The notes beneath the pieces are model-generated. The model saw nothing but the letters and a program-made list of their open reading frames with translations, was not told the DNA's origin and did no database searches. The translations under genes and the position numbers were made by a program. From contig JAHJOO010000056.1 in the NCBI GenBank assembly GCA_018820275.1, positions 25,628-89,627 of the forward strand: a stretch of 64,000 nucleotides of DNA. The letters run 5' to 3'. This stretch comes from Alphaproteobacteria bacterium. GTDB lineage: Bacteria > Pseudomonadota > Alphaproteobacteria > Caulobacterales > Caulobacteraceae. Shown here one piece after another: positions 34,344-59,296 of the stretch (position 1 is the stretch's first letter; each line of letters begins with the position of its first letter).

Positions 34344-34346
34344 TTA

Positions 34347-40780: not shown

Positions 40781-42156
40781 GCGTCCGCTTCCTCTTCCTG
40801 GAAGCCTGTCAGGGTCGACCGGTCCGTCTCTTCGGCATCTTCACCCAGCTGGTGGGTCTGGCGGGCAGTGACCGGTGCGGTGAACTGAACCGGCATGGCG
40901 TCCAGCGTGATGCGGTCTCCGGAACCCACCGCGAGATCCACATAGGGGCTTTCTCCCGCCAGCAGCTCCATGAACGCCATCAGCCGCCCGTGCCAGGCCT
41001 TGTTACGCCAGCCCGAACAGATGGACCGGCGCAAGCGGAACTGCGCGCGCTTGTCCGAGATGACGACGGTCTTGTCCGGCCCCGTCAGGTCCGAGAACAG
41101 GACGCGGCCCTTCAGCTTTAAATGGGGGTAGGGGAAAAGGCTCGGGGTCGCGCTGACCCCGTATTCCCACACCCGGTTTTTGGCCTTGTTGCGCAACATG
41201 GAGTTGCGCCGCTCGCCCTGGCGGCCCCAGCTCACGCGCTTGCCCAGGCCGAGTTTCGTGGCGTCGACGTGAAAAGCGGTGGCTCCGGAGAACTCTCGGG
41301 CGAAGAAGCCTTCGCGGACGCAATGTTTCTCCCACGACTGACGCAGAAGATTGTTCAAGAGACCGTGGGCCTCACGGCTCTTGATACCCAAGGCCCCGGT
41401 GCCGTCTGACATGAAGTCTTCGAGGCCGATGCGGGCTTCGATCCGGAACCGTCCCACGGGGAGGAAATGCTCCTCCATCTCGAGTGGGGAGACGAAGCCG
41501 AGAAACCCTTGGCCGAAGCGGGCAAGAGGAAGGCTGAAGCTGCGGCCGAGACGGCCGAGCAGGGCGTCGTCAGCCGGGCTTGTGGGCGTCAGATAAGAGA
41601 TCTCATCGGGCATACTCATGATGCGCAGCCAGTTCGACGTCAGCGTCTCGGGCGAACGCTCCACGGCGATCGCCAACCGCCGCTGATAGGCTGACCAGGC
41701 CGGCTGGATTACGCCGCCGCCCGCTTTGACGACCCCTTGGCGGTCCAGCGATTTCAGCAGGGAGGTCAGTCCCGGCGCCCAGCCAGGACAGAAGTCCACA
41801 TACTGCAGACCGCCGATGCCGAAGACCTTTTTGAAAGGCTTGAGCCGCAGAGGAATAATGAAGTTCGGATCCTGAAGCTGTTTGACGAGATCCTCCGCGA
41901 TGCTGATCTCCTCACGGACCCCGCGCCGCTGGAGCGTCTCATCGCTGCAGCACAGCAGCATACGCGCCGCCCGCTCCTGGAGTGACGATGTCAACTTCCC
42001 CCGCCACTCGTCCCCTGCGTCAAGGCCCAGGATGTCGGCGAAGACCCGGTAGCCAGCGGCTTCCAGCCGCGGGGCCAGCCACAAGACGAACGCGTCGTCG
42101 CCAGGCGTCGCCTTAGAGATGAATATCGAATCGCGAAGGGCGGAATCGTTCTCCAT
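40777..42156 (-). CDS. TIR-APAZ protein, the SPARTA effector partner
   Basis: The N-terminal TIR-like domain ([31 protein letters not shown]...[21 protein letters not shown]) is followed by about 300 aa of APAZ-like region. The gene is translationally coupled to the short pAgo. Confidence 0.85.
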
Positions 42157-42513: not shown

Positions 42514-44118
42514 ATGGGGGGTGAAGTGTCAAAATCGGCGCTGCTCGCCCATGCCCGATCCGCGGCCAAACACCTTTACGACCCGAAACATGCCCTGGAG
42601 GCACGTGCCGGCGTGTGCCTCGATCTGCTTTCAAAAGACGGTGCCGACGAGCGCCTTGATGGATTCCGGCGGGCTCTGCATGCATTGCCGATAGACGAAC
42701 GCCACTACTGGGTTGGAACGCTCTACACCCTGATGTTGCCAAGCAAGGTGCGGCGGTCGCAAGCCACATACTTTACGCCGCCTCCTGTGGCCGACGCCGT
42801 TGTCGAAATGGCGATTGCGGCTGGTTTCGATCTCGCCAAGGACGACGTGCTGGACCCCGCTGCCGGCGGGGCCGCCTTCCTCTCCACGCTCGCTGGTCGG
42901 ATGTCGATCGCTGAGCTGCCGCCACGCGAGGTATCGCACCGTCTGAACGGCATCGAGATCGACGAGGGCCTTGCGGTGCTTTCGCGTCGGCTGATTGCCG
43001 AACGCCTCGGCGCGCCGCTATCCCGCGAGGTTATCGTCTCAGGCGATGCGCTGCGTTACCCGATCCCAGCCTCATACGGCCTGGTCATCGCGAATCCCCC
43101 ATATGGCCGAGTATCGCTCGACGATGTCTCGGGCAACGCTTGGAAACACGTCGCGCACAGGGGTCACGTCAACAAGTACGCGTTGTTCACCGAGCTGTGT
43201 TTCCGACACGCTAAGCCGGGCGGGGTCGTCGCGCTCGTCATCCCTTCGAGCTTCCGGGCGGGTCCACTTTACGACCGCATGCGCACGTTCATCCGCTCGC
43301 AGGGCGAGGTGCTGAGCATTGGATCAATTGCTGGTCGCGACGGCGTCTTCGTCGACGTGGCGCAGGACATCAGTGTCTTGCTTGCGCGGAAGGGCAAGCC
43401 ACACCCTCGCGGCGCGATGGTATCGTTTCCGGTCATCGGGCGCGCGACCGCGACCGAGGCAGTCGTCGAGCAGGCATTGCCGCAGGAAGCTGGCGATGCA
43501 TGGCCGCTGCCAGCAGCGGATCCGCGCGACTACGGCGGCGCAACACTCGCCGATTACGGCGTCACGGCTCGCGCCGGATATTTCGTTTGGAACAGGGAGC
43601 GGGACAGGCTGGTCCAGAAGTTGGAGCGTCATCAGCGCGGCTACCCCCTCATATGGGCTAAAAATGTGCGCCTGCACGAATATTGCCGGCCCGCAGGCAA
43701 GAACAATGCGAGGGCAGATTTCGTCACGTTCGACGACGACAGCGCAGCGATCATCAAAACCGTAGCCGCCGTCATGCAGAGGACGACCAACGACAAGCAG
43801 CCGCGCCGCTTGATCGCCGCCATGGTCGATCCCGCAGTCATCGAAAAGTGGGGCGGGTTCGTGACTGAGAACCACACGATCGTGCTCACTGCGGACGATC
43901 CCGAGAAGCTGCGAACCGCCGTTGCCTTGCTCAACACCTCCGCGGTGGATCAGCGCTACCGGCGCGTGTCTGGCACCGCGGCTGTCTCCGTCACTCTCCT
44001 GCGGCAGCTGGATTTGCCAGAGCCGTCCGCCTTCGCATCCGCGCTCGTCAATGCAGGTGGCGACACCGAAATCGCTGCGATGACCGCCTATCGGCGGCTC
44101 GCGCTGGCAGACGCCTGA
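42514..44118 (+). CDS. N6-adenine DNA methyltransferase, Eco57I/gamma-class-like, in the DrmMI-like position
   Basis: The SAM motif VLDPAAGGAAFL and the catalytic motif IANPPYG (43093-43107) are present. Its stop overlaps the next start (TGATG). Confidence 0.85.
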   Translation: MGGEVSKSALLAHARSAAKHLYDPKHALEARAGVCLDLLSKDGADERLDGFRRALHALPIDERHYWVGTLYTLMLPSKVRRSQATYFTPPPVADAVVEMAIAAGFDLAKDDVLDPAAGGAAFLSTLAGRMSIAELPPREVSHRLNGIEIDEGLAVLSRRLIAERLGAPLSREVIVSGDALRYPIPASYGLVIANPPYGRVSLDDVSGNAWKHVAHRGHVNKYALFTELCFRHAKPGGVVALVIPSSFRAGPLYDRMRTFIRSQGEVLSIGSIAGRDGVFVDVAQDISVLLARKGKPHPRGAMVSFPVIGRATATEAVVEQALPQEAGDAWPLPAADPRDYGGATLADYGVTARAGYFVWNRERDRLVQKLERHQRGYPLIWAKNVRLHEYCRPAGKNNARADFVTFDDDSAAIIKTVAAVMQRTTNDKQPRRLIAAMVDPAVIEKWGGFVTENHTIVLTADDPEKLRTAVALLNTSAVDQRYRRVSGTAAVSVTLLRQLDLPEPSAFASALVNAGGDTEIAAMTAYRRLALADA

Positions 44119-46865
44119 TGGCACGTAAACGGCCCTATAATCGCCCACCGGGCACGCAGGGACGGGACAATGTGCGGCAGGTGGAGCTTGCCCGGCGCCA
44201 GGCGCTCGTCGCCAAGCTCACAGAGACAGCGACGAAGCGGGCCGCCAATCCAGTCCCACCATTGCAGCCGAAGCCGGAGCAGCCGTCGCGCGACGTGGAC
44301 GGTTACATGGCCGCGATCGCGGCCCATCCGCTTTATCGGCTCGGTGAAAAACACGCCGCAGAGCTCACCCTGACGTACGCGACCCTAGTCCGGTCAGCCG
44401 TTGAGATTGCCGGACAGGGTGACGCCAAGGTCGTGATGCCGTGGCCGCCATCCAAGGTGTCCCCATCGGCAATCGTCTCGCTGCTGACGATCGGCGCGAT
44501 CGGCAGCGCACCCCGCGAACATGTCGAGTTCCAAGGCACGCAGATTCCAAGCCGAGGGCGCGCCGACGAAGTGCGCGCGGTCGTGTTTCCGTACGCCCGC
44601 AGCACACACGCCCAAGCGAGGCAGGTGCAGGTCGATAGGCACGAGTTGGGCCGGATAAACTTCGAACACGTCGCGCGCTATCTCGGCAGCGACAGTGACG
44701 CGGCAAAAGATCTGCATCAGGTTCTCGCACGGGTCCGCCAGCTGAACGGACGCGCGTCTGACGGACGCGAATACGCCGAGTTCGAGCACCCCATCCTTGA
44801 CGAGGTCATTCCCCACGGCCCCGCCGGTGGGGACCGCCCATCCAACAGCTCTGTCCTTTGGCGTACGCGCGCCAAGACCGACATTGGCCGTCAGGCGCGC
44901 TCGGGCGAGGCGGATGATCCCGCCAAAGCCGCATACTTCATGTTCACGGTCCGCCGTGACGACCGGCTGGGCAACGAGCTGCGTGCCATCAAGCGGCCGC
45001 TTGATCTCCTCATCCTCGACCTGTCACGCAACGCTCGGGACCGCATCGGTTGGGACTGGGTGCGACGGGCTGGCGAGATGGTCGCGTCTATGCGGGAGAT
45101 CCACCCCTCGGCAGGCATCCTGGCCGTCGTTGATGATCCATGGTCATATCGCGCAGCCCGTTTTGACGTGCTCGCGAGGAGGCGGACCGGCAAGAATGGC
45201 AAAGCCTTCCCTGCGCATGGAAGCGTCGTCTATTGCCCGACCCCCGGGATACTTCAGGACGTCGGGCAGTGCGCTCCCTCATTCGAAGGTGCGCTGTCCA
45301 TCACTGTTGATGGGTTCTACGGCGACGTCGACCGCAACATCGAGCACCTGCGCGAACTCGCCAACCGCCTATCTGACATGGGGGATTCCGCCGGCGCCGC
45401 GACCGCCCGCAACCTGATGGGGACGGTCCGCCGGTCGGCGAGCTTACCCGGCTCGATCGCCGAGCTAAGCCGCTTTATCGAGCGCGAGACGTCGGCCGCT
45501 ATCGCCGACGACCGTCTCGCGACCTACCGCGCGACCGCCGACATCAGCACTTTGACCGACCCCACCAGCCTCGCGAGTCAGGTCGACGCCGAGAAGGGAG
45601 TGGCGGCTGAAGCCAGGTCTGTGATGCGAACGCTCGACCAGGCAACGCCGATGGCCTCGCTGATCGAGGATGTGATGCAGCCCGCGCTGCGATCGAGCTC
45701 CCGTTCCGTCTTCGTGTTCAGGTCCGACATGATCGCCGAGTTCGCCGCGGATAGGCTGGGCAAGTCGCATCCCAAGCTCGCCGAGCGGATCGGAAGCGGC
45801 GTCATACGCTTTGGCGGCGCACGCGCGCTCAACACCGTCGCCGACGCGCCGGCTTCCGCTCGCAACCAGTTCAAGCGCGCCATCGTCGTCGCCCCCACGA
45901 CGTCGACGATACTGGCCACGCTGGCGGAACCGTGGCTACCCGAGCAGATGGTGTTCCTGGCCGATGCGGATACGCTTGCGTTCGCCGCCCGCGATGCCGC
46001 GCGCCTCGCTAATGAGATCGGCGTTGACGCGCTTGCGGCGCGGCTGCGGACGTTCGCCGAGAAGGCAAACAGCCGCGTAGTGGAGATCGGCCGCCACACG
46101 GTGCAGCTGGATGCGGAGGCACCGTCGGAGGACGTCGAGTTCCCGACCGGTTCGGTAGTCGACCTCACTGGCGGCGGTCGGGGCGAACGCCGGCTGGTCG
46201 AAATCAAGCTCGGCAACGGGCAACGCATCATCGCCCGCCCGTCAACTGGCATGGTCTTGCGGGATGACGGCGCGGCGACGACCACGTTCGTCGAGCGACC
46301 CGCGTCACAGTTAAGACGTGGAGATGAAGTCTGCGTGATCGGAGCTGGGTTCATCGAGCGCGCCCGGTCGCTCGTGAACATCCGCGCGACCGCGGCCGAG
46401 GAAATCCGCGAATACCACAATCAGGTGGCGAAGCGGTTTGCCGCCATACCCGAGGACTCCACGAATGGCCGGCTCCGCGTCCTGGTGGCGCGGATGGGCC
46501 AGCCGGCTGTGCCGATCGAGCGCGCCAGATACTGGATCGACCTGCGTGATGAGATCGACAAGCCGCTCCACGAGGTCGTGCCGCATGCCCCGCAGGACCG
46601 GGACACCTTCATGCGGTTCACAGGGGCGCTCGGGATCGGACAGAAGCTGGCCGAGAGCTTCTGGCTGTGGGCCGTAGTCGCCCAACGTTACCACCGGATG
46701 CGCGCGGGGAACATCTTCCATGACGCCTTCCGCGGCATCCTAACTGATCCCCATGCCGCGCTCGCGAGCAACCGCAACCGGAGCGCCGACATCAGGGCGC
46801 TCCGCGCAATGGCTGAGGAGCACGTCGGGACCGTCGCCAACACGCGGATTATCGAGGCAGTATGA
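44118..46865 (+). CDS. Large uncharacterised protein (915 aa) with no helicase or NTPase motif visible
   Basis: The gene is translationally coupled on both sides (TGATG and ATGA). No Walker A or DEAH motif was found on reading the translation. Confidence 0.7.
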   Translation: MARKRPYNRPPGTQGRDNVRQVELARRQALVAKLTETATKRAANPVPPLQPKPEQPSRDVDGYMAAIAAHPLYRLGEKHAAELTLTYATLVRSAVEIAGQGDAKVVMPWPPSKVSPSAIVSLLTIGAIGSAPREHVEFQGTQIPSRGRADEVRAVVFPYARSTHAQARQVQVDRHELGRINFEHVARYLGSDSDAAKDLHQVLARVRQLNGRASDGREYAEFEHPILDEVIPHGPAGGDRPSNSSVLWRTRAKTDIGRQARSGEADDPAKAAYFMFTVRRDDRLGNELRAIKRPLDLLILDLSRNARDRIGWDWVRRAGEMVASMREIHPSAGILAVVDDPWSYRAARFDVLARRRTGKNGKAFPAHGSVVYCPTPGILQDVGQCAPSFEGALSITVDGFYGDVDRNIEHLRELANRLSDMGDSAGAATARNLMGTVRRSASLPGSIAELSRFIERETSAAIADDRLATYRATADISTLTDPTSLASQVDAEKGVAAEARSVMRTLDQATPMASLIEDVMQPALRSSSRSVFVFRSDMIAEFAADRLGKSHPKLAERIGSGVIRFGGARALNTVADAPASARNQFKRAIVVAPTTSTILATLAEPWLPEQMVFLADADTLAFAARDAARLANEIGVDALAARLRTFAEKANSRVVEIGRHTVQLDAEAPSEDVEFPTGSVVDLTGGGRGERRLVEIKLGNGQRIIARPSTGMVLRDDGAATTTFVERPASQLRRGDEVCVIGAGFIERARSLVNIRATAAEEIREYHNQVAKRFAAIPEDSTNGRLRVLVARMGQPAVPIERARYWIDLRDEIDKPLHEVVPHAPQDRDTFMRFTGALGIGQKLAESFWLWAVVAQRYHRMRAGNIFHDAFRGILTDPHAALASNRNRSADIRALRAMAEEHVGTVANTRIIEAV

Positions 46866-49800
46866 AGGGTCTGTCGAACACGAAGCTGTCTGGGATCGAT
46901 GTCGAGCTCAAGGAAGCGGTCTGCGACGCGCTGGTGAATGCGCTCGTCGAACGCGTGAGCGGCACCGACGAGCGAGGGCAGACGATCTACGGCGGATCGC
47001 CGCGACGTGGAATATTCGCTGGCCAGCTGCTCCCGCGCTTCGACGTCAGCGGCGCCCTCGACGAGACCACCGACATCCGCATCGCCGCGATCGGGATTGA
47101 CTTTGTGGTGGGTGCGAACGGCTCCGCCGCTATCTCAGCGACGCCCCGATTCTCCGTATACGTGCGAGTCATCCCACAGTGGCGCGACCTCTCTGGCGGT
47201 GGCGGCCAGCTCGATTTCGACTTCAAGCTGCAGAAAGCGATCCAGCAGCAGATCGACGCTGCGATCCGCGTCGACCGGACGACCGCCCTGAAGGCCGCCA
47301 ACCTCGAACGGCCCGACTGGAAGGCGATGGACGAGAATCGCCGGTCGAAGGTGCGCGCCGAGCGGGCCCAAATCCTCGCCGATGTGCGCGTCAAGGCCTA
47401 CGCTGCATTCGGGATCAAGCTGGTGTCGGGCGTGCCCGAAGAACCTGCCCCGACCCAAGAGCCCCCGGCAGGAAACGGGGACGCCACCGGGGAATCCACC
47501 GAACAGCCGGCGCCGATCTCGCGTCTCATCCGCGAGGGCCGAGAGCTACCGCTGACGCTCGTCGACCCCGCGCCGATACCGGGCAAGTGGCGGCGGCTCG
47601 ACCTCTCCCTCCCAACCTTTGATTTCGATAGCGAAATGGGGTCGCCGGCCCTCGCCGCCGCGCTCGTCACCTACAATGCCAGCCTCGCGGCGGCGGTGGC
47701 GGCCCAACTCGAAGCGTGGGCTACCGGGGAGGGTGCCGCCGAGGCATGGCGCGACGTCAACGTCTCACCCGGCGACACCTTGGACGAGGCCCGGTGGAAT
47801 GCGGCCGTCGCGGCGCTTGCCACCAGGCCCATCGATCGTACGCGCGTCATCCCTGATCTTTCCCGCATCGCCCTGAAGGTCGAGCGCCAGGTCGACTTCC
47901 TGGATTCCACTCGGCTGTCGCTGCGGATCATGCTGGATAACCAGTCACCCGAGCCCACGCCGCAGGACGCGCGCGGTCGCTGCAACACCGTCTTCGGCGC
48001 CGGACTGACACTCGCCCTTCCCGCCGCCGCGCACCGGCCGCTCCGGCTCGATAGGGTTGAGCCCTCCTACCGCTTCCGCGACCACCTCGACTATCCGGCG
48101 ATCGGGCTCAACTGCGGGGTCGAGGCGGTCGAAGCCGGGGACCTACTCACTCTGGGCACCACCGCCGCCCCTCGCTTCTCGCAACCGCGGATCGTTGCCC
48201 GAAATATTGACCTGCCCTTTCAGTTTGCGATTCTCAAGGATCGGTCCTTCGACGCGAAACGGCTGCTCGAGCTGCCGCGTGCATACAGCGAATGGATAGA
48301 CGGCCAAGAGAAGCGGCTGCGCGACACCGTAACGAAGGGCCTGACACGGGACGATGCGGCGGTCGAAAAGGCTCGTCTGGCGAAGGACATCGCTGCCCAG
48401 CGCGCCGAGGCTCGCTACATCGAGCGCGGCGTCGAGATCCTGATCGCGTCGAAGGAGGCCAGCGACCAATTGGCCGGCAAACCGCCGGGCGATGGGGGCG
48501 ACCTCGCGCGACGCGCCGCGCCCTGGATGGCATGGACGCTCACCAACGAGGCCTTCGCGTTGCGCGATGCGCACGACACGAGCCGAGGCTGGCGCCTGTT
48601 CCAGATGGCGTTCGTGCTCTCCCACATCCCGGTGTTTGCATCCCGCATGGCCGAGTGGCGCGAATTCCACGACTCGATGCTCGACGAGGACGGAGCCAGC
48701 CTGCTCTACTTCCCGACCGGCGGCGGCAAGTCGGAGGCGTTCTACGGCACACTGCTGTTTGCCATGTTCCTCGACCGCCTGCGCGGCAAGGACCGCGGGG
48801 TCACCGCCTTAATCCGCTATCCCCTGCGGCTCCTGACACTCCAACAGGCGCAGCGATTGCTCAAGCTGGTCGTGCGCGCCGAAATGGTGCGCCGTCGCCA
48901 GAAGGTCGGCGGGTGGCCATTCGAGATGGGCTTCTGGGTGGGAAGCCAGAACACGCCTAACCACTATGGTGCGTTTCGCGCCGATATCCCGTTCGCCAAC
49001 GATGCTGACTTCGCTGACGACAGCACGCTCGACGGTGAGACGGGCGACGAAGACCAACGCGCCCGCGGCCGCCGATACGCCGAGGCCCGCGAAGCTTTCG
49101 ACAAGATCCCCGAGTGCCCGGTTTGCGGAGAACCCACTGGTTTGCGGCGGGACGAGAACGAGGGTCCGACCGGGCGGCGCGTGGCCATCGTGTGCTTCAA
49201 CGACAGGTGTGCGTGGAACCGCGAGCACGGCCGGCGACACCCTCTCCCGTTTCTACTGACCGACGATGCCATCTACGCCCGCGCGCCGGCGATTGTGCTC
49301 GGCACCGTCGACAAGCTGGCCATGCTGGGCCAGCATACCGGCACGATCTCCAAGGTGCTCGGCATGTTCGGGCTCGCCCGCCGTGTCGATCAATGGGGGA
49401 ACCTGTATACGCCGCGGCGCGAGGAGGACCTGCGCCGCGATCCGGCCGACGACAACAGCTCGAACGTGCATCCCGCATACGCGGACGGGAAGCGGGTCTT
49501 CCACGATCCGTTCCCGTCGCTGATCATCCAGGACGAGGCGCACCTTCTGGAGGAGAGCCTCGGGACGTTCAGCGGCCTGTTCGACACGCTGCTCGACGCG
49601 GCGTTCGAGGAGATCGCCGAGATGGGCGGCGATGGACTGGACGTTGCCCGGCGATGGACCGGCGACGGCTGGGGCGCTCCTCGGATGCCGAAGGTCATCG
49701 CGGCGACGGCCACAATCTCGGCGCCCGAACGCCAGCTCGAGACACTCTACCAGCGGCACCCGTTGCGCTTCCCCTATCCCGGTCCGGATCTCTACCATTC

Positions 49801-51190
49801 CTTTTTCGCCGAGCCGGCACCGCCGCCGGCCGTGAACCCTGAGCGAGTCGAGCTGGCGAAGCGGCTACCGTTCGCGCAGGCACCCGAGCAGACCGCACCA
49901 TGGATGCGCCTTTACGTGTCGCTGATGACGAACGATGCGACGCACACGGTCACCACGGTCGGGGTGCTAGCCGCGTTCCACGGCATCGTCACGGCGCTGT
50001 GGGACGGCATGATCGCGGACGACCGCCGCGCTACGACCATCGCGTCGATCCGGGCGGCGGTGTCGTCGGGCCGTGCGGGGGACTGGCACCGGGCGGCGGT
50101 CGACCGTGCCCTCGCGGAGGGCCGCCAGGACGAGATCATGGCGCTGGTGGACCTGCACCGGATTGCGCTCGCATACGTTACTAACAAAAAAGGCGGCGAC
50201 CAGATCATTGACGCCCTGAGCGCCGCAGTCGAGCACCAGCATCGCCGCCTCGGCCGCGAGAACTCGCCGTTCGCCAGCCGCCTGATCTCGGGCGGCATCG
50301 ACATGAAGGATATCCAGCGCGTGATGGAGGAGGCCGAGACCTCCTTCGATGGCAAAGACTATCCCGACATCGGCGCGACGGTTCGGAACATCGTCGCAAC
50401 CTCGGCGATCAGCCACGGCGTCGACGTCGACCGCTTCAACAGCATGTTCTTTGCGGGGCTGCCGTCCGACATTGCCGAATACATCCAGGCCTCCAGCCGC
50501 GTCGGCCGCACTCACGTTGGATTCGTGATGCTGCTGCCGACGCCGCAGAACCGGCGTGACCGATACGTTGTGGAGACGCACGACATTTTCCACCGCTTCC
50601 TCGAGCGGATGATCGCGCCGCCCGCTGTCGAGCGCTGGGCGGAGAACGCGATCAAGCGCGCGATGGCGTCGTATGTGCAGGCGTGGGCGATGCTGCGCGA
50701 GGCCCGCGAGTTCATCAGGCAGGACGACGCCAAGAAGCCCGACGTCCTCCAGATGGACCAGGTCAGCCGCCTCGCGTCGCTCGCGCGCCTAAACCACGTC
50801 GCCCTCTGCGAGGAGATCGGCGACTTCATGCTCAGGGCCAGCGGCTACACCGGAAAGGGCCCATCAAAGCTGGGCGCGCCGCACTACGAGGAGTTCTACC
50901 GCGCCCTCGTCGACAAGCAGGTCGACGTGTTCGTCCGCAGCATCGCGAGCCGCGGCACGACCTCGAGCCTGCGGGAATACTGGGATGACCTTCCGGCATT
51001 CCAGAAACCGATGACGTCGCTGCGCGACGTGGACGAGGCCGGCTACATCGTCGCGGCGGGTCGCGACCCGCTCGCGCGCAGCCGATCGACCGACATCGAC
51101 CGTGGACAGCTGGCCGAGGTCATGCGCGCCATCAGGACCCAGCGGGGCACCGCCTCGGACATGGATGCCGACGGAGGAAGCGATGGCTGA
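46862..51190 (+). CDS. DrmA-like superfamily-2 helicase (1442 aa)
   Basis: Motif I FPTGGGKSEAF lies at about 48713-48733 and motif II IIQDEAHLL has its DEAH at 49532-49543. C-terminal helicase motifs are present (ATSAISHGVDVDRF, QASSRVGR), and there is a long N-terminal extension. Confidence 0.85.
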   Translation: MKGLSNTKLSGIDVELKEAVCDALVNALVERVSGTDERGQTIYGGSPRRGIFAGQLLPRFDVSGALDETTDIRIAAIGIDFVVGANGSAAISATPRFSVYVRVIPQWRDLSGGGGQLDFDFKLQKAIQQQIDAAIRVDRTTALKAANLERPDWKAMDENRRSKVRAERAQILADVRVKAYAAFGIKLVSGVPEEPAPTQEPPAGNGDATGESTEQPAPISRLIREGRELPLTLVDPAPIPGKWRRLDLSLPTFDFDSEMGSPALAAALVTYNASLAAAVAAQLEAWATGEGAAEAWRDVNVSPGDTLDEARWNAAVAALATRPIDRTRVIPDLSRIALKVERQVDFLDSTRLSLRIMLDNQSPEPTPQDARGRCNTVFGAGLTLALPAAAHRPLRLDRVEPSYRFRDHLDYPAIGLNCGVEAVEAGDLLTLGTTAAPRFSQPRIVARNIDLPFQFAILKDRSFDAKRLLELPRAYSEWIDGQEKRLRDTVTKGLTRDDAAVEKARLAKDIAAQRAEARYIERGVEILIASKEASDQLAGKPPGDGGDLARRAAPWMAWTLTNEAFALRDAHDTSRGWRLFQMAFVLSHIPVFASRMAEWREFHDSMLDEDGASLLYFPTGGGKSEAFYGTLLFAMFLDRLRGKDRGVTALIRYPLRLLTLQQAQRLLKLVVRAEMVRRRQKVGGWPFEMGFWVGSQNTPNHYGAFRADIPFANDADFADDSTLDGETGDEDQRARGRRYAEAREAFDKIPECPVCGEPTGLRRDENEGPTGRRVAIVCFNDRCAWNREHGRRHPLPFLLTDDAIYARAPAIVLGTVDKLAMLGQHTGTISKVLGMFGLARRVDQWGNLYTPRREEDLRRDPADDNSSNVHPAYADGKRVFHDPFPSLIIQDEAHLLEESLGTFSGLFDTLLDAAFEEIAEMGGDGLDVARRWTGDGWGAPRMPKVIAATATISAPERQLETLYQRHPLRFPYPGPDLYHSFFAEPAPPPAVNPERVELAKRLPFAQAPEQTAPWMRLYVSLMTNDATHTVTTVGVLAAFHGIVTALWDGMIADDRRATTIASIRAAVSSGRAGDWHRAAVDRALAEGRQDEIMALVDLHRIALAYVTNKKGGDQIIDALSAAVEHQHRRLGRENSPFASRLISGGIDMKDIQRVMEEAETSFDGKDYPDIGATVRNIVATSAISHGVDVDRFNSMFFAGLPSDIAEYIQASSRVGRTHVGFVMLLPTPQNRRDRYVVETHDIFHRFLERMIAPPAVERWAENAIKRAMASYVQAWAMLREAREFIRQDDAKKPDVLQMDQVSRLASLARLNHVALCEEIGDFMLRASGYTGKGPSKLGAPHYEEFYRALVDKQVDVFVRSIASRGTTSSLREYWDDLPAFQKPMTSLRDVDEAGYIVAAGRDPLARSRSTDIDRGQLAEVMRAIRTQRGTASDMDADGGSDG

Positions 51191-53417
51191 GGCGAACGGC
51201 GGCACCAAGGACTGGCGCAGCGGCGGCGTTGGACGCAGGCCGTCCGCGTTCGGCGGCGGGCGGAGCGAACCAGATCGCCTCGAACCGCCGACGATGTCGC
51301 GTTCGCGCGTGCAGTTGGCCAGCTCGTATGCGCCGGGCGTGCTCATGACGTGGGAGGGCGGAAAGGGAATCTGCCGAACGGTCCCGCTCGCGAACGACAT
51401 CACCAAGGAGCTTAGGCCGACCACGATCGAGCTGATCTACGAGAATCTGCGCGACTTCGTGACCAACTGGCGCGAACGCGCGATGAAGGCGGTCCCCGAC
51501 GCCCTCCCCGAACTCGTACTCGACGCCCCGTTCCTCAACTCCCGCACGGGCGAGGCGAACCTCGAACGGTCGGACTTCCAGATGACGGGACCGGACCGCG
51601 TCGGATACGTCCCCTATCCGCTGCTGTACCGGTGCGGCGTCTGCGGATCGACCCGCGAATACGAGAGCGTCGCCGACCAATGCCGGCAGCCGCTTCCGAA
51701 GAAGTGCCATGACCACGATGCGCGCTGGACCCAGGTCGATGTCGTCTACGCGCACTGGTCGGGCGACATCCAGCCGCTCAGCCCATTCAACTTCAACTAT
51801 GACGCGCAAAGCGGCGAGGTGCGTCAGATCAGGATGTGCACCTGCGGGTCGAACAGCTTCAAGCTCCTAAACTCGGCACCGGTGTTCTCGGAATGGAAGT
51901 ATGTCTGCGAGGACTGCGGCAACTCGCGCACGCTGAAGAAGGCCAATCCTGATGTGCTCGCGCGCCTGCAGGCGGATCAGCTCGCCGGGGGCCGCACCTT
52001 CCAGTTCGTCGAGGTCGACATGCTGCCGGTATCATACCGGGCCAACTCCACCTTCTACCCCCAGCGCACCAGCTTCATCGAGTTTCAGGATAGTTCGGTC
52101 GTCGACCTGATGACGTCGCAGCGGACCGGCGCTCTGACAGCGAAGCTCGCGCAGATCCACAACATCCCGTTCGATGAACCGACCGACAACGAGATCAGGG
52201 AGAAGGTCGAGGCCTCCCCGGCGCATACGGGAGAATGGGACGATTACTTCGGGTTCATGGCCATGGCCCAGCGCGCGGACGAGAGCGGGCGACCCGATCG
52301 CGCCCGAAATTACCGGGACCAGGCGACCGAACTGCGCGAGGGCTGGTTCGCGGCCGGCATCGTCGACCGAGGTCACCTCGGCAGCCCGGGCGTCCTGCGC
52401 GCGATCGCACTTCGCGAGGAATGGACCCGTCGCTACGACCCGATCCGGCTGACCGTCCAGCACGACGCATTCACCCGCGAGCATATCGACGAGGCTATGT
52501 CGCGGCATGCCGCCGTCGACGTGATGGAGCCTGACATCACGCTGACCGACGTCGTGAACGATCCCGAGAGAAGGGCGCGCTACCAAGCGTCAACCGGCAA
52601 CCTGCTCGCTCACTTGGGCGTGAAGCGCCTTGTACTCGTGAGGGGCCTGCCGATCTGCGAGTTCAGCTTCGGCTATTCCCGCGTCTCCTCGACTCCGGTC
52701 TACAAGCGAGAATACCAGGGACAGAGCATCGATATGCCGGTGCGTCTCAAGGCTTTCGACCAACTTCCTATCCAAGGGACAAAGCGGCCGATCTACGTCA
52801 CGCAGCAGCGGAATGAGGCGCTCTACTTCAAGCTTGACGAGGCGCGCGTCATCCGCTGGCTGAAGGCCAACGCGGTCAGCGACGTGCCCGACGAGGCGCT
52901 GGGTCGCGCGTTTCTCGAGCGCTACGAGGACTTTGGTCCCTTTCTTGAGATGTTCAAGGACCGCGAGGGGACGGGCGGCTACCCGAGGACCGTTCCGGCC
53001 TACGTCTATCTCCTCCTCCACACGCTGTCGCACCAAATGATGCACTCGCTCGCGGACACGTCGGGCATCGATCGCGACGGAACTGGTGAGCACATCTTCC
53101 CCGCCGACCTCGCCTTCGTGATCTACCGAAAGGGGATGACGCCGGACCTTGGCAACATATCCGCGATGTGGCGCAACCATTCCGACGAGTTCCTCCGCCG
53201 GGGGATCGACCCGCGGACGCTGCGGTGCGGCTCGGGCAGCCTGTGCGACGCGCGGGGTGGAGCTTGCCCAGCCTGCATCATGGTGTCGGAGGTGAGTTGC
53301 ATCGCGTCAAACCTTCTGCTGTCGCGCGCCGTGCTCAAGGGCGGGCGAGGACCAGAATGGGAACCTAGGTCGGCTCCCGACCTCGTCGGCTTCCTCGATC
53401 CCGCGGTCGCCGGGTGA
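51183..53417 (+). CDS. DrmB-like DUF1998 protein
   Basis: The C-terminal four-Cys cluster (CGSGSLCDARGGACPACIMVSEVSC) is typical of DUF1998, and there are extra Cys pairs (CGVCGS, CEDCGNS). The ATG at 51183 overlaps the DrmA-like stop. An alternative ATG lies at 51294 (MSRSRVQLASSYAPGV). Confidence 0.8.
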   Translation: MAEANGGTKDWRSGGVGRRPSAFGGGRSEPDRLEPPTMSRSRVQLASSYAPGVLMTWEGGKGICRTVPLANDITKELRPTTIELIYENLRDFVTNWRERAMKAVPDALPELVLDAPFLNSRTGEANLERSDFQMTGPDRVGYVPYPLLYRCGVCGSTREYESVADQCRQPLPKKCHDHDARWTQVDVVYAHWSGDIQPLSPFNFNYDAQSGEVRQIRMCTCGSNSFKLLNSAPVFSEWKYVCEDCGNSRTLKKANPDVLARLQADQLAGGRTFQFVEVDMLPVSYRANSTFYPQRTSFIEFQDSSVVDLMTSQRTGALTAKLAQIHNIPFDEPTDNEIREKVEASPAHTGEWDDYFGFMAMAQRADESGRPDRARNYRDQATELREGWFAAGIVDRGHLGSPGVLRAIALREEWTRRYDPIRLTVQHDAFTREHIDEAMSRHAAVDVMEPDITLTDVVNDPERRARYQASTGNLLAHLGVKRLVLVRGLPICEFSFGYSRVSSTPVYKREYQGQSIDMPVRLKAFDQLPIQGTKRPIYVTQQRNEALYFKLDEARVIRWLKANAVSDVPDEALGRAFLERYEDFGPFLEMFKDREGTGGYPRTVPAYVYLLLHTLSHQMMHSLADTSGIDRDGTGEHIFPADLAFVIYRKGMTPDLGNISAMWRNHSDEFLRRGIDPRTLRCGSGSLCDARGGACPACIMVSEVSCIASNLLLSRAVLKGGRGPEWEPRSAPDLVGFLDPAVAG

Positions 53418-53971
53418 CACGCGAGGTCCTGATATCGCCGAAGGCGACGGCCAGGCTGGTCGTTACAATGCCTCCCGAGCCAAGCAGACTTGGGACCGCA
53501 TTGGCCGAAGACATCGCGAGCGACTACGTCACCCTCACGCCCACAACCGACGCGTTCCGCCACATCGCCTTGCTGGCCCGCGAGCAGCTCACGATCATGG
53601 TCCCATACATCGACTCGGTCGGCGCGGACTGGGCGGCGGAGATGTTCGAAGGCACGACCGCGGCCGAGCGCACGCTCGTGATCAGGGAAGCGGCGCAGCT
53701 CGGCAGGTGCGGCAGCCCGGGACGGCGCCTCGAGCGCGCCGCGACGCGGATCATCGACTATGGCGGGGCGGACCTCAGCCAGGAGACCTTCCACGCCAAG
53801 GTCGTGCTGGCGGACGGTGTCGCCGCATACGTCGGGTCAGCAAACCTGCTAAGGCGCTCGAAGATGGCGAACCTCGAGTGCGGGATGCTTGTCGAGGGTC
53901 CAGCGGTGCAGGCCGTCAAGGTTCTCCTGGATGCCGTGATCTCAGCCGCCAGCCTCTCAAATACACGTTGA
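53414..53971 (+). CDS. DrmC-like PLD-family (HKD) nuclease
   Basis: A single HKD motif FHAKVVLADGVAAYVGSANLLRRS is present, with the His codon at 53792-53794. The GTG start overlaps the previous stop (GTGA). Confidence 0.85.
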   Translation: MTREVLISPKATARLVVTMPPEPSRLGTALAEDIASDYVTLTPTTDAFRHIALLAREQLTIMVPYIDSVGADWAAEMFEGTTAAERTLVIREAAQLGRCGSPGRRLERAATRIIDYGGADLSQETFHAKVVLADGVAAYVGSANLLRRSKMANLECGMLVEGPAVQAVKVLLDAVISAASLSNTR

Positions 53972-54118: not shown

Positions 54119-55429
54119 CTATCGCTTGTGCAGAAAGTGCTCTGGTCGGAGCTCGGCGAAAACGCCTTGTCGACGCCAATGTTCAGCTTCGGCCTTCATC
54201 TCCGGCGTCCGCTTCTCGGCGTCGAGAATCTCCAGAACCAATAGATTGTCCTCGGCGGATACGTGCGGCCAAGCGACGCCGATGAACGTCGTCTCCTTCG
54301 CAAAGGTGTCGGCCGCAACGACGAGATGTTGTCGCAGATGGCGGAGCACCAAGTCCTCTTGCGCCTGTTCGGACATCCAGTCGGGGCGCTTGGGATAGGC
54401 CAGCCACAGATAACGGACGGTGGGGTCCGTAGGTGAGGGAACCGTCGCCGCCCAGAAGGTGGTCTGGTCCGGTTCGTCCAGAATGCTCTTGAGGGCTGCA
54501 GCAATCATTCTCCTCTGGAAACGCCCCTCCCTCGCAAGCATTCGCATGGCTCGCTCGTGGTTCGACGGATCCTGGGCGCGAACGCCAGCTAGGTGCGCTC
54601 GGTGGAACTCTTCCACCAAACGATCGATCACATAGCTTCCGGCGTTCTCCCGGAGCGTGTGCGCCGCGCGGCCAGAGGTCTCATAATCCTTCCAGGCACC
54701 CTGTCGCGCGCGCCCACTCGAAAGTCCTTCCGGCGACACTTCGAACCGCCCGCTGCGAGTCCAGGCCTCCGTCGCGGCTGCGAGCAAATCGGCTTCCCGA
54801 AAGGCGCAACCCGGGTTCGACCTCAAGGTCGCCTCCCGGCTCGAAAGATACTCCACTAGGTCGGGCAAGGTGTCGAGATGGCCCAAGATCAGATCCACGT
54901 CCCGGCCTTCGAAGACGTGTACGAACCGGTCCTGTACGTAGAGCGGCCCGATCGTGAACGGATCCGACGGCGAGTGATCCGACCAAGTCAGCCCCGGCCA
55001 ACCGTCGGGCGTTACGCCCGGTTCACCATGCGGACGGGCCACATTTATCAGATGGTAGGCGCGTTCTCCGACTGGCGCGAGCTCATACCATAAGCGCGAC
55101 CGCGCTCCACGGTCGGTGAAGACAGCCGCCCCCGGTCGTTCTAGCCGTCGCACGGCGCCCCCTAGCTGTCTGACGCCTTCCAGGACGGCGGCTCGATGCC
55201 AGCGCTCCCATGCGACCGGTAAGGGCACGGTGAGATCGAACCGGCACGCCTTGTCCGAGAAGACGAGAACGTCGCGCCCAAAGGGAACGATCAGATCCGA
55301 GAGTTCCTTGCCCGGCTTTCCGAACGGGTTCGCGATGGTCCATGGCTTCAAAAATGCTTGGTGTCCCAATGACGCCAGATAAGCCTCGGACAAGCTTCCG
55401 CCCATCTGCCGAAGGTCCTCGTTCGTCAC
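54119..55429 (-). CDS. Hypothetical protein (436 aa), possibly with an N-terminal nuclease-like module
   Basis: It has a 4-nt overlap with the upstream DUF4238 gene. The N-terminal block GKELSDLIVPFGRDVLVFSDKAC resembles endonuclease-fold core motifs, but this is a weak assignment made by eye. Confidence 0.6.
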   Translation of the reverse strand: MTNEDLRQMGGSLSEAYLASLGHQAFLKPWTIANPFGKPGKELSDLIVPFGRDVLVFSDKACRFDLTVPLPVAWERWHRAAVLEGVRQLGGAVRRLERPGAAVFTDRGARSRLWYELAPVGERAYHLINVARPHGEPGVTPDGWPGLTWSDHSPSDPFTIGPLYVQDRFVHVFEGRDVDLILGHLDTLPDLVEYLSSREATLRSNPGCAFREADLLAAATEAWTRSGRFEVSPEGLSSGRARQGAWKDYETSGRAAHTLRENAGSYVIDRLVEEFHRAHLAGVRAQDPSNHERAMRMLAREGRFQRRMIAAALKSILDEPDQTTFWAATVPSPTDPTVRYLWLAYPKRPDWMSEQAQEDLVLRHLRQHLVVAADTFAKETTFIGVAWPHVSAEDNLLVLEILDAEKRTPEMKAEAEHWRRQGVFAELRPEHFLHKR

Positions 55430-56313
55430 CGACTCGGTTCTCCTTCCGCAGGCTGAACCGCATTTTTCGGAAAATGCTCTTCGATGAGGGTCTCGTGCGA
55501 CCTATCGAAGGCGATGACGACCGACCGCGCCTGCTCTACGACCTTGCGATTAAGCGTCTCCACGAAGGTCTGTTCGGGGATCATCATCATCAGAGGCATT
55601 CGTTGAGGGGACCGATGCGCGATGAAGATGGAACGAGGACCCAACGGCATGACGATCACTCCATTGGGGGTGCTGAAACTCCCGAAGGTCACGGGTTGAT
55701 CTGAGAGGAGTAGGGTGAGCCCCGGGTCGGTCAGGTCTCGCACCCCCCATTCCATGTTGACGATCAACTCCCCCATGCGCGGCGCATCACACAGACGCTT
55801 CACCACCATTCGTCCGAGATCCTCGTCGAACCGGCGGTCACGGGTAGACGAAAGATAATCCGCCACCGTCGCGGGCCAGTCATCTCCTCGCGTGGCCTGA
55901 TAGCGAGCCTCCAGTGAATCCCCCTCGCCTCGATACTCCCGCGCCTCCGCGATGGCGCTGATCTCTCGCACCCGCGCAGGACTGCGGCTGATGAGGGACA
56001 TGACGAAGCGGGCCCAGTCGGAAGCCATGATCGGCGATGCCGGCCGGCCGCCGACGGCGACGACTTCCTTCAGGGCGAGAGCCGCTCGCGAGTCGAGCTG
56101 TTGCATGAAGCGGGATTCGATCGACTGTCGATCTTCGGGGTCGCCTCCCTGGAGAGCGTACAGATCGACCTCGAACCCGATAGCCGACGGCGGCTTCCGT
56201 TTTCGATCGATCGCCTCATGGGGCCTACGATAACACCACACATCGTCTTCGTCGGCGGCCCAGCGCCGAATGAAGAACTCCGGGACGTAGTGGTGCTTCC
56301 TAGGATCGGCCAT
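55426..56313 (-). CDS. DUF4238 domain protein
   Basis: The N-terminal KHHYVPEFFIRRW matches the DUF4238 hallmark HYVPxFYLxxF. Confidence 0.7.
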   Translation of the reverse strand: MADPRKHHYVPEFFIRRWAADEDDVWCYRRPHEAIDRKRKPPSAIGFEVDLYALQGGDPEDRQSIESRFMQQLDSRAALALKEVVAVGGRPASPIMASDWARFVMSLISRSPARVREISAIAEAREYRGEGDSLEARYQATRGDDWPATVADYLSSTRDRRFDEDLGRMVVKRLCDAPRMGELIVNMEWGVRDLTDPGLTLLLSDQPVTFGSFSTPNGVIVMPLGPRSIFIAHRSPQRMPLMMMIPEQTFVETLNRKVVEQARSVVIAFDRSHETLIEEHFPKNAVQPAEGEPSR

Positions 56314-56818: not shown

Positions 56819-58048
56819 CTAGGGGTAGTAGCCCCGCTTGAAATAGTCCCCCAGGCAGACATTACAAATCGAATGGTCATCGGGCTGTATGGCGACCGAT
56901 GCGGCGATCGCGTCTTCCAGCGAATAGTAGGGCATCCAGACCCCCGACGACTTGGCACCGGCCTTGCGGCCCTGGCCGTCGCGGCAAAAAGCGCATTCTG
57001 CTTTGTGAACCTTGGTAGATTGGTGCGTGGTGCTCGAATAAACCCAATGCGACGGGGCCAGCACGACATCGTCGTCCGAAACTTCGATCAGGATCGGCTC
57101 GGACGGCGGCTCTTCGCCCTGCTCGGACTCCACCAGTCGGCGTTCGGCCGTGAAGTCGTCCGCCATCGTGAGCATGTCGGCGACCGACCAGAGCCGCGTT
57201 GCAAGGCCGGCCGCGATCGCCGCCGGGTCCCTCTTGATCCATTGGCGGCTGCGCGTTCCATCGGGCTGAAGGCGAGGCCGCATCGGGCGCGGAATCCAAC
57301 AGTAGTTGTGATAGACGGCCCACATGGCGATGTGCCGCTCGTGGTTCAGCATCGTTTTGGAGAAGGCGTTGGTCTTCCGGTTGAAGCGCCGGTTTCCCAT
57401 TCGCAGATTCAGATTCTGGCGCTCGATGTATGACGTGTGGGTGTCTTCGACGCGCCAGTCGCCGGAGCCCTTTTTTCGATTGGCGCCGATGTAGCGTCCG
57501 CCCGGCGCCTTGTTCCCGTTCTTGTCCTGCTTGTCGTATTGCTTCTCCAGGATGCCGTAGTCAGCGTCCGCGCCAAACGCGTTCCTGAAAGCCTTCGTGT
57601 AGGCCTTCAGGCCATCGGTCGCGAGGTGCGGCCGAACGACGAACCCGCCGTCCGGGCTCCGTTCCAATTTCCCCGCCACGTTCTTTAGGAACTCGCTGGC
57701 GTTGAGAGCGTCCTGATCGCCGAGGTGGTATTCGAAGATCAGCTTAGAATCCGCGCACATGGCGAGGTAGGTCCAGACACGGCCAGCGCCCTCGGGTGGG
57801 TCGATCATGTCCGACAAGTTCTTTTCCTTCGCCCCAACGAACGAATGCAGTTCGTCGGCTTGGATGTTGGCGATGTGCAGATTCTTGAGCGTCTTCATGT
57901 GGGCGATGGCCCAATCACCGACTTCGGCGAACAGCTTGGCGACGGTGTTCTGACTGACGTCGAAGATGCGCTCGCAGGAACGCTGCGACATGCCCTCGCA
58001 CAGGCAATGAAGCATACGAACGCGCAGGTCCTGTGGCTTCCGGTTCAT
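56819..58048 (-). mobile_element. IS1-family-like single-ORF transposase gene. The ends of the IS element were not determined.
   Basis: An N-terminal HTH (CEGMSQRSCERIFDVSQNTVAKL) is followed by a DDE triad context (QADELHSF, ATDGLKAY, SYIERQNLNLRM). There is also an unusual Cys-rich C-terminal extension of about 110 aa. Confidence 0.7.
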
Positions 58049-58762: not shown

Positions 58763-58767
58763 CCGGG

Positions 58768-59223: not shown

Positions 59224-59243
59224 CTCGTGAAAATAGGCGCTTG

Positions 59244-59264: not shown

Positions 59265-59296
59265 GCAGAAGGGTCTCTCCCACTTGGAGGTCGCCC

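Follow-up and report, generated by a model that had tools for sequence, protein, structure and literature searches.

A five-gene operon encoding an adenine methylase and a helicase-shaped accessory protein as a probable distinct lineage of DISARM

DISARM, a family of methylation-linked anti-phage systems, is split into two classes on the basis of accessory genes, a division followed by PADLOC 2.0, NCBIfam and Pfam. The core is defined by drmA, encoding a helicase (pfam00271), drmB, encoding a DUF1998 protein (pfam09369), and drmC, encoding a PLD nuclease (pfam13091) (bioRxiv 10.1101/2021.12.28.474362, restating Ofir et al. 2018). Class 1, as in Serratia sp. [quoted passage not shown] Class 2, as in Bacillus paralicheniformis (DrmE, DrmA, DrmB, DrmC and DrmMII), adds DrmE, a large protein without ATPase motifs, and one small C5 methylase, DrmMII (pfam00145). 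Among YprA helicases, the DISARM branch is marked out by having helicase and DUF1998 protein encoded in separate genes (Bell et al. 2025). In Dpd, ARMADA and Druantia, too, a helicase of the YprA family is paired with a zinc module of the DUF1998 type, and some include PLD nucleases or methylases, but in these systems the two modules are fused, with nucleases often being fused C-terminally (Bell et al. 2025); in addition, ARMADA is characterized by its BrxHII-like helicase and its PglX-like methylase, and Dpd by its 7-deazaguanine genes.

Examination of a 64-kb stretch of alphaproteobacterial DNA (the window) revealed five genes that we read, with a probability of roughly 0.6, as the complete operon of a distinct and unnamed DISARM lineage. 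These are as follows:

42514..44118, + strand: methylase gene, encoding a gamma-class N6-adenine DNA methyltransferase of 534 aa
44118..46865, + strand: gene encoding the 915-aa signature protein, in the position of drmE
46862..51190, + strand: drmA, encoding a long DrmA-type SF2 helicase of 1442 aa
51183..53417, + strand: drmB, encoding a DrmB-type protein of 744 aa
53414..53971, + strand: drmC, encoding a short DrmC-type PLD nuclease of 185 aa

The first-pass annotation, made from the letters of the window and a list of its ORFs, had described five overlapping genes on one strand. Indeed, the ORF list and the sequence reveal stop and start codons to overlap throughout the + strand cluster (42514-53971), with the junctions reading TGATG (methylase gene and 915-aa protein gene), ATGA (915-aa protein gene and drmA), ATGGCTGA (drmA and drmB) and GTGA (drmB and drmC). 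Each motif named in that annotation (NPPYG, GGGKS, DEAH, a Cys cluster and a single HKD) was likewise present. The start of drmB was assigned to the ATG at 51183, which is preceded on its 5' side by GGAGGA and which gives DrmB its length of 744 aa; the GTG at 51102, corresponding to the longest ORF (51102-53417), was rejected as a start, the ATGGCTGA junction of the first-pass annotation implying 51183. Because in-frame third-position G+C in the five genes is 0.74-0.83 and full-length homologues appear in the same order elsewhere, these are real genes rather than chance ORFs. A scan for promoters and terminators returned no signal exceeding shuffled expectation.

Judged by sequence, the last three genes encode DrmA-, DrmB- and DrmC-like proteins, as the first-pass annotation had also concluded. 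PADLOC results here and below come from a scan with the PADLOC 2.0 HMMs, as distinct from the PADLOC or DefenseFinder pipelines. The helicase expected of a DISARM core is provided by DrmA, which contains intact helicase motifs I, II and III (GGGKS, residues 620-624; DEAH, 891-894; TAT, 949-951) and which matched the PADLOC DrmA model (9.2e-94), the DrmA structure in PDB entry 7s9v (2.5e-46, residues 574-983) and Pfam Helicase_C (29.2 bits, above the cut-off). In a plasmid search, the N-terminal ~400-470 residues of DrmA aligned solely to same-lineage homologues, and only such homologues covered residues 1-1428. DrmB is encoded by a gene of its own that overlaps the drmA stop codon and presents a four-Cys DUF1998-type motif (C682, C688, C695 and C698) that is invariant across 35 homologues and resembles in spacing C559/C565/C581/C584 of Serratia DrmB (PMC9142583), together with additional N-terminal Cys pairs (C151/C154, C219/C221 and C242/C245). 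Matches of DrmB to PADLOC DrmB (8.2e-14, residues 556-748) and NCBIfam DrmB_fam (6.5e-11) were confined to the C-terminal ~190-240 residues; Pfam DUF1998/MZB gave no match and no sequence-related solved structure was found. With the start placed at 51183, DrmB proved as conserved as DrmA in the homologue survey. The PLD nuclease of the core is represented by DrmC, with its single HxKx4D motif (HAKVVLAD at 127-134, i.e., H127, K129 and D134) and its matches to Pfam PLDc_2 (30.8 bits; cut-off 27), PADLOC DrmC (3.5e-10) and more than 20 further DrmC models; its 185 aa fall short of the ~244-267 aa encoded by canonical DrmC genes among the loci compared. All three proteins fall far below the trusted (naming) cut-offs of NCBIfam (DrmA, 371 bits against 950 for DISARM_DrmAS; DrmB, 41.8 bits against 240 for DrmB_fam; DrmC, 39.8 bits against 133 for DrmC_I), such that these loci are annotated as encoding a 'helicase' and a 'hypothetical protein.'

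Membership in ARMADA, Druantia or Dpd is not indicated. Helicase and DUF1998 protein are the products of two genes here, and in the PADLOC scan strong matches of DrmA were to DrmA models only, with DruE appearing at 3.4e-05, BrxH marginally at 0.0071 and DpdJ not at all.

The DNA methyltransferase of the core is also present, given that the product of the first gene contains N6_Mtase (36.8 bits) and Eco57I (33.7 bits) domains, both above Pfam cut-offs. Its motifs, YFTPP (86-90), DPAAGGAAF (114-122) and NPPYG (194-198), are kept across 37 homologues, with motifs I and IV being conserved. The protein matched PADLOC MTase_II PDLC03338 (2e-98, residues 12-519), gave a match of only 1.9e-7 to PglX and a weak PDB match to M.TaqI, and had no DrmMI model among the best 25 of its 31 PADLOC matches. 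Its earlier description as a class-1-type methylase thus needs correction, as only N6-adenine chemistry is shared with DrmMI. These matches place the enzyme in the family of TaqI/Eco57I-kind methylases of type II/IIG restriction-modification systems. Unlike in those systems, no cognate restriction endonuclease is found here, and the methylase accompanies the pseudo-helicase/DrmA/DrmB set despite changes in position or orientation. By analogy, it is presumed to be the self-marking enzyme.

The 915-aa protein was recognized by no model in Pfam, PADLOC 2.0 or NCBIfam. Neither GxxxxGK[ST] nor a DExx sequence at the helicase position is present, in line with the first-pass annotation, which had seen no NTPase motifs, and neither Walker A nor DExx was found in any of 79 relatives. 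Instead, 'hhLxWP' and 'hhhhD[LA]T[R]' stand family-wide where Walker A and B would be. The AlphaFold model, which is confident (pLDDT 84.8, pTM 0.78), predicts a two-lobed SF2-helicase fold, together with a helical insertion (~403-525), a Hint-like beta-barrel (~680-740) and a helical C-terminal domain. When the model was compared by Foldseek, the best PDB matches were all SF2 helicases (FANCM, 2.3e-6; RIG-I, MDA5, XPB and Chd1), and the best matches among viral structures were SNF2 ATPases; TM-scores were low (0.14-0.24) because lobe orientation differs. The protein, previously taken for a non-helicase, is predicted to have the shape of an SF2 helicase, its ATPase motifs having been lost. Conservation is lower for it than for any other of the five proteins, and its family comprises 271 clusters when grouped at 50% identity. 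No sequence-related solved structure was found for this family, and no relatives were found on viral contigs.

Of 34 species genomes, 27 contain the complete five-gene set in an unchanged order, with three more lacking only DrmC, and homologues in close and mid-range loci share 50-96% identity. When loci interrupted by a contig end are set aside, 31 related genome loci are left, and drmC is missing from three of them. More remote members of the 915-aa family, at 16-25% identity, are encoded directly upstream of a DrmA of 1388-1458 aa, as is the Polaromonas pPNAP03 member, which scores 636 bits against the family profile; this adjacency held for every sampled locus of the family having downstream sequence. 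A long DrmB follows DrmA in nearly all sampled loci and, in the remote and Polaromonas loci, wherever the contig extends far enough (733-754 aa), an N6_Mtase/Eco57I methylase is encoded nearby in all remote loci other than the contig-truncated L040, and a PLD gene is found in most. In a small neighbor-joining tree that had neither an outgroup nor support values, DrmA proteins associated with the 915-aa family grouped in a single clade, separate from DrmA of class 1 and of the class-2 type. On these comparisons of gene content and order, the five-gene set is conserved as a unit and constitutes a recurrent subtype in many Proteobacteria, in agreement with the new subtype foreseen by the first-pass annotation. 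The subtype carries no name, and literature searches found no named third class of DISARM.

The proposal that the locus lies outside both described classes was similarly upheld, as DrmD, DrmMI, DrmMII and DrmE were detected neither by HMM nor by tblastn over the whole 64-kb window. The negative DrmD and DrmMI results are meaningful, since genuine class-1 proteins scored 2e-279 (DrmD) and E=0 (1103 bits; DrmMI) in the same PADLOC scan. The further suggestion of a hybrid of classes 1 and 2 is, however, less likely than a separate lineage, given that the layout parallels class 2 and that DrmA forms a clade of its own.

Of the described systems, class 2 is closest in layout, with its C5 methylase being replaced here by an unrelated adenine methylase. 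Both combine a core of split DrmA and DrmB and a PLD-type DrmC with one small methylase and a large protein lacking ATPase motifs directly upstream of drmA. DrmE was represented in these comparisons by a Lactobacillales DrmE-like family of nine sequences and not by the tested Bacillus paralicheniformis DrmE. This ~800-aa family matches NCBIfam DrmE_fam (1.7e-18) and Pfam DrmE_C. In the corresponding class-2-type loci, a gene for Vsr is followed by those for a C5 methylase, the ~800-aa protein, DrmA and DrmB; the order of methylase, DrmE-like protein, DrmA and DrmB is identical in the locus considered here, with DrmC coming next where it is present. A profile search and a metagenome scan for further members left the family at nine sequences, thereby limiting both hhalign and AlphaFold, and most of the plasmid matches inspected for a true DrmE belonged to class 1 or to further variants. 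In the rough DrmE-like model (pLDDT 61.6, indicative only), which retrieves SF2 helicases and a mini-intein, elements appear in the same order as in the 915-aa protein, such that both large proteins are predicted to be SF2-like with a Hint-like element. A remote relative of the 915-aa protein, distinct from the DrmE_C-matching one considered below, matches an intein-containing model, and in one source a homologue bears the name 'Hint domain-containing'.

It could be argued that the 915-aa protein is a true, if very divergent, DrmE and that the locus is strictly class 2, with the methylase alone having been swapped, making this a methylase-exchange variant rather than a separate lineage. We consider this unlikely, even as it survives best of the alternatives. 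Besides the shared DrmE position, gene order and predicted order of structural elements, and the SF2 and Hint-like matches of both proteins, it draws on a colinear hhalign match between the 915-aa and DrmE-like families (E 0.0026, probability only 11.6%) and on DrmE_C (PF24957) being matched by a single remote relative out of 55 (E 0.0045). Nonetheless, none of those 55 relatives matches DrmE_fam or the PADLOC models, the 915-aa protein itself does not match the DrmE model NF038316, restricting hhalign to sub-domains did not strengthen the match (probability <=12%), and direct HMM searches with the 915-aa family profile returned negative scores for DrmE-like and DrmD proteins. The two proteins run parallel in their position and in the order of genes and of predicted domains; sequence evidence for homology between DrmE and the 915-aa protein is weak. 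The remaining genes also speak against the strict class 2 assignment. Methylation is of the N6-adenine rather than the C5 (PF00145) type, and no Vsr gene is present. DrmMII is absent throughout the window, as tblastn with three C5 methylases detected no such gene in the 64 kb (the best match, E 0.006, being a 51-residue chance match inside drmA), and no C5 methylase was seen among Pfam-scanned neighbors. At ~1390-1460 aa, DrmA is ~250 residues longer than in class-2-type loci (~1150-1180 aa), DrmB, at ~740-750 aa as opposed to ~635 aa, is ~100 residues longer, and both cluster apart. Finally, the methylase type is constant throughout the lineage, which is not what a one-off swap would give.

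Far less probable is that the genes, instead of forming an immune system, serve DNA repair or maintenance as a module around a YprA/MrfA-type helicase, or that they are a remnant without activity. Repair enzymes do exist among YprA-family helicases, some related loci (L001, L004 and L030) are truncated or frameshifted, and we infer the immune role of the lineage by analogy. Yet, a DNA methylase, a PLD nuclease and a split helicase/DUF1998 pair are DISARM traits, and all five ORFs are intact, with their catalytic motifs conserved. Moreover, the cluster adjoins a SPARTA short-Argonaute system in a defence island at a tRNA-Val gene, the surrounding island being low in GC and containing integrases, while relatives are located in islands of chromosomes and on plasmids as well as next to Tn7-like genes. 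No tRNA-derived direct repeat marking the far end of the island was found.

Similarly improbable is a canonical class 1 locus whose DrmD and DrmMI diverged past easy recognition, since, although adenine methylation, the predicted SF2 fold of the 915-aa protein with its SNF2 and Chd1 matches, and two accessory genes ahead of drmA, drmB and drmC would fit, the DrmD and DrmMI HMMs that readily detect genuine class-1 proteins are silent, ATPase motifs are missing throughout the 79 relatives of the 915-aa protein, the 534-aa TaqI/Eco57I-like methylase is unlike the ~1300-aa PglX-like DrmMI, the accessory genes are in reverse order (methylase and then pseudo-helicase) and the DrmA proteins form a separate clade. 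In agreement, no window protein matched SNF2 or DrmD, including the 915-aa protein, for which a DrmD relationship had been named beforehand as the outcome that would make this class 1, and tblastn with DrmMI reached E 0.028 at best. What is shared with class 1 beyond the arrangement and adenine chemistry is the DrmA core, the four-Cys motif of DrmB and a DrmC that is dispensable or missing in some loci; what differs is the lack of an SNF2 ATPase, the helicase-shaped protein having neither Walker A nor Walker B.

Were the distinct DISARM lineage to function as work on Serratia class 1 and Bacillus class 2 suggests, the methylase would mark a short host DNA motif with m6A. DrmA and DrmB, to judge from the Serratia system, would form a heterodimeric, ATP-driven single-stranded DNA translocase; invading DNA whose 5' single-stranded ends are exposed would be its loading substrate, with methylated DNA damping DrmAB. 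The 915-aa protein, in the place of DrmE, may be a subunit with no catalytic activity that binds DNA or has a regulatory role, linking DrmAB to methylation status or DNA structure, and would be required for defence, as is DrmE in class 2, while the PLD nuclease would act as an accessory degrading enzyme, the loss of which is possible. The lineage would offer a natural experiment, in which the same core operates with another methylation chemistry and a pseudo-helicase, and could reveal how DrmAB discriminates self from non-self and what role DrmE-type proteins assume. Its recognition would improve censuses of defence systems in Proteobacteria.

More tentatively, and at somewhat less than even odds, the 915-aa family and DrmE may both be ATPase-dead descendants of an SF2 helicase, possibly DrmD/SNF2-like, that acquired a Hint-like barrel and now serve as non-catalytic sensors of DNA or methylation state that license DrmAB. 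Such common descent would bring the accessory proteins of every DISARM class under one scheme and give initial access to the structure and function of DrmE. The widespread lineage, with its adenine methylase, would in that case represent a third class, the self/non-self logic of which would be directly comparable with that of classes 1 and 2.

Reading of the junction sequences of the five ORFs encoding the methylase (534 aa), the 915-aa protein, DrmA (1442 aa), DrmB (744 aa) and DrmC (185 aa) confirmed all four stop/start overlaps claimed in the first-pass annotation, which had proposed a mixed or new DISARM subtype:

42514-53971, + strand: five ORFs of the DISARM-like operon (ORF list)
44118, + strand: methylase/915-aa gene junction, TGATG
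46862, + strand: 915-aa gene/drmA junction, ATGA
51183-51190, + strand: drmA/drmB junction, ATGGCTGA
53414, + strand: drmB/drmC junction, GTGA

In-frame third-position G+C of these ORFs is 0.74-0.83. The longest drmB ORF begins with GTG at 51102, a start rejected in favor of an ATG at 51183 that GGAGGA precedes by six bases. Every motif named earlier was present. The sequences show NPPYG (194-198), YFTPP and DPAAGGAAF in the methylase, GGGKS (at 620), DEAH (at 891) and TAT (at 949) in DrmA, a C-terminal cysteine cluster (C682, C688, C695, C698) together with N-terminal CxxC pairs in DrmB, and a single HAKVVLAD in DrmC. The 915-aa protein, said to be without visible NTPase motifs, indeed contains neither a P-loop nor DExx at the helicase positions.

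DISARM comprises a DrmA/DrmB/DrmC core, joined in class 1 by the SNF2 helicase DrmD and the ~1300-aa adenine methylase DrmMI, and in class 2 by DrmE and the C5 methylase DrmMII, as restated in bioRxiv 10.1101/2021.12.28.474362. The five proteins were assigned as follows.

Family assignments (PADLOC; Pfam; NCBIfam)
DrmA: 9.2e-94; Helicase_C; DrmAS, 371 bits (cut-off 950)
DrmB: 8.2e-14, C-terminal part only; no DUF1998 match; DrmB_fam, 41.8 bits (cut-off 240)
DrmC: 3.5e-10; PLDc_2 above cut-off; DrmC, 39.8 bits (cut-off 133)
Methylase: MTase_II PDLC03338, 2e-98, nearly full length; N6_Mtase, Eco57I; none near cut-off
915-aa protein: none; none; none

Because DrmA, DrmB and DrmC fall below the NCBIfam cut-offs, they would go unnamed by the NCBI pipeline, and homologues appear in public records as 'helicase-related protein', 'DEAD/DEAH box helicase' or 'hypothetical protein'. 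Among solved structures, only Serratia DrmA (7s9v, 2.5e-46) is related to the helicase. No DrmMI model was found among the best 25 of 31 PADLOC matches to the methylase, and PglX models reached only about 1e-7; as a positive control, the same library recognized DrmD (2e-279) and DrmMI (E=0) in a class 1 locus on a Sphingomonas plasmid. When DrmD, DrmMI, three C5 methylases and a DrmE-like protein served as tblastn queries, no credible match was obtained anywhere in the 64 kb. The cluster therefore holds the DISARM core and neither the class 1 accessory genes nor the class 2 methylase. All 35 DrmB homologues compared retain the four C-terminal cysteines, whose spacing resembles that of the Serratia DrmB zinc motif (PMC9142583). 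In DrmA, residues 751-786 (window 48.9-49.2 kb) weakly matched an Ogr/Delta-like zinc finger (E 0.0024, short of the cut-off) and may represent a zinc-ribbon insertion into the first RecA lobe.

An AlphaFold model of the 915-aa protein, built with a 105-sequence alignment, was confident (pLDDT 84.8, pTM 0.78) and comprised the following elements:

~72-400: alpha/beta lobe
403-525: helical insertion
529-616: second alpha/beta lobe
between second lobe and barrel: long helical pair
680-740: beta-barrel
after the barrel: helical C-terminal domain

In a Foldseek search of the PDB, the top matches were all SF2 helicases or translocases (FANCM, 2.3e-6; LGP2, RIG-I, MDA5, Dicer, XPB and Chd1), and among viral models they were SNF2 ATPases. 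TM-scores were low (0.14-0.24), as expected if the lobes differ in orientation. In a 79-member alignment, 'hhLxWP' and then variable residues occupy the strand-loop-helix where Walker A would lie, 'D[LA]T[R]' closes the Walker B strand and 'TDDP' takes the place of motif III; GK[ST] and DE are missing from these positions in every member. Judging from model and alignment, we conclude that the protein is SF2-derived and predicted to be unable to hydrolyze ATP by the conventional mechanism. One source labels a homologue 'Hint domain-containing protein' and one remote family member matches an intein-containing NCBIfam model, which points to a Hint-like beta-barrel.

For comparison with DrmE, a ~800-aa family from Lactobacillales stood in for the tested DrmE of Bacillus. 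One Lactiplantibacillus plasmid encodes a C5 methylase, an 801-aa protein, DrmA and DrmB, and relatives of the 801-aa protein lie in loci ordered Vsr, C5 methylase, ~800-aa protein, DrmA, DrmB(MZB). Three of nine family members matched NCBIfam DrmE_fam (1.7e-18), one matched Pfam DrmE_C (residues 576-720, 7e-4) and three of four gave weak Intein_splicing matches in the DrmE_C region. The AlphaFold model of the DrmE-like protein, although poor (pLDDT 61.6), shows elements in the same order as the 915-aa model and retrieves Chd1, Hef, DDM1 and Snf2, as well as mini-intein 5o9j (52 columns, rmsd 2.3 Å). Using hhalign, the two families gave a colinear match over the second lobe and barrel (E 0.0026 but probability 11.6%), and HMM scores between them were negative. 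Among 55 remote relatives of the 915-aa protein, one matched DrmE_C (0.0045) and none matched DrmE_fam or any PADLOC model. The 915-aa protein thus holds the DrmE position and probably has DrmE architecture, but the evidence falls short of placing it in the DrmE family.

Clustered at 90%, full-length relatives of the 915-aa protein number 108, each ~915 aa long and from Alphaproteobacteria. A scan of one genome per species revealed 34 loci in Sphingomonadales, Hyphomicrobiales, Rhodobacterales, Caulobacterales and Kordiimonas. Using tblastn with correctly framed queries, all five genes were found in the same order in 27; one more holds all five with broken matches, three lacked only DrmC and three were cut by contig ends. 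Nearest are the loci of a Brevundimonas MAG (90-95% identity) and of Sphingomonas changbaiensis. At mid-range, conservation is lowest for the 915-aa protein among the five, as in locus L010 (methylase 73%, 915-aa protein 66%, DrmA 76%, DrmB 80%, DrmC 79%). Upstream of a related system on metagenome contig L004 (3407-6924) lie five tandem RadC genes (169-170 aa each, ~750-bp even period).

An exhaustive profile search expanded the family to 271 clusters at 50% identity, mostly of 830-960 aa. In remote loci, namely, those of five members at 16-25% identity and of Polaromonas naphthalenivorans plasmid pPNAP03 (943-aa protein, 636 bits against the family profile), the gene immediately 3' of the family member always encodes a 1388-1458-aa DrmA and, where the contig is long enough, the next encodes a 733-754-aa DrmB; most also have a PLD gene. 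An N6_Mtase/Eco57I methylase lies upstream, downstream or inverted, except in contig-truncated L040. In a small neighbor-joining tree with neither outgroup nor support values, DrmA proteins tied to the 915-aa family form one clade, which the longest internal branch separates from class-1 and class-2-type DrmA.

The composition, coupling and conservation of the five-gene set are observed directly, and we put at a little over 60% the probability that the cluster works as a DISARM-type system and represents a separate lineage. Bell et al. 2025 report 'many uncharacterized DISARM-like classes' within the DISARM-like clade of YprA helicases and name the separation of helicase and DUF1998 genes as the hallmark of DISARM; further classes are therefore expected. 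No paper naming or describing the present lineage was found in the literature searched, and its signature 915-aa protein has no entry in PADLOC 2.0, NCBIfam or Pfam. The lineage is of value for annotation and for work on how DISARM controls self/non-self discrimination, and does not introduce a new principle. From Serratia DrmAB (PMC9142583) and class 1 and 2 genetics, we infer that the methylase would mark host DNA with m6A, while DrmA and DrmB would form an ATP-dependent ssDNA translocase switched on by DNA carrying 5' single-stranded ends and restrained by methylation; the pseudo-helicase would serve as a non-catalytic DNA-binding or regulatory partner, and the PLD nuclease would be accessory.

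Window G+C is ~0.70, dropping to 0.61-0.67 between ~30 and 60 kb. The lower-G+C stretch after a tRNA gene (about 30200-58100), which also contains several unknown genes, looks like an integrated defense island; a tRNA-derived direct repeat marking its far end was sought and not found.

30086-30160: tRNA-Val(GAC), directly after the aconitase gene
33364-34035: GIY-YIG gene
34340-35701: integrase-like gene 1
36562-37842: integrase-like gene 2
39224-40780, - strand: short pAgo, 518 aa (pAgo_I, 2.4e-201)
40777-42156, - strand: TIR-APAZ protein, 459 aa (PADLOC Aga_TIR-PNTD1-PNTD2, 7.4e-155)
54119-56313, - strand: DUF4238 gene (295 aa) overlapping a 436-aa gene without family match, just 3' of drmC
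56819-58048: IS-like transposase

The SPARTA-type pair (39224-42156), with overlapping stop/start codons, adjoins the DISARM-like operon and is divergently transcribed. The DUF4238 gene may be an associated or neighboring defense gene; another (388 aa) lies beside the methylase of a remote same-lineage locus (L041 1156-2322, L042 295-1461).

Mobile elements appear to carry the cassette as cargo. Tn7-like transposition genes (TniQ, TniB, rve transposase) adjoin remote relatives (L039 34-4379, L040 1-5043, L041 14772-18118), and others are plasmid-borne (Mesorhizobium pMspAR07c, Sinorhizobium americanum, Polaromonas pPNAP03, Afipia). On Sphingomonas parapaucimobilis plasmid NZ_CP155757.1 (L044, 1-19625), a class 1 DISARM (drmD, DrmMI-type methylase, drmA and a DUF1998 gene, without drmC) interrupts a type I-E CRISPR-Cas locus, with cas3 on one side and casA on the other. 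To the right of the island, 58376-62873 carries a metal-resistance-like cluster (ArsR-type and MerR-type regulators, cation-diffusion facilitator, outer-membrane efflux protein and HlyD-type fusion protein), indicating a Gram-negative host.
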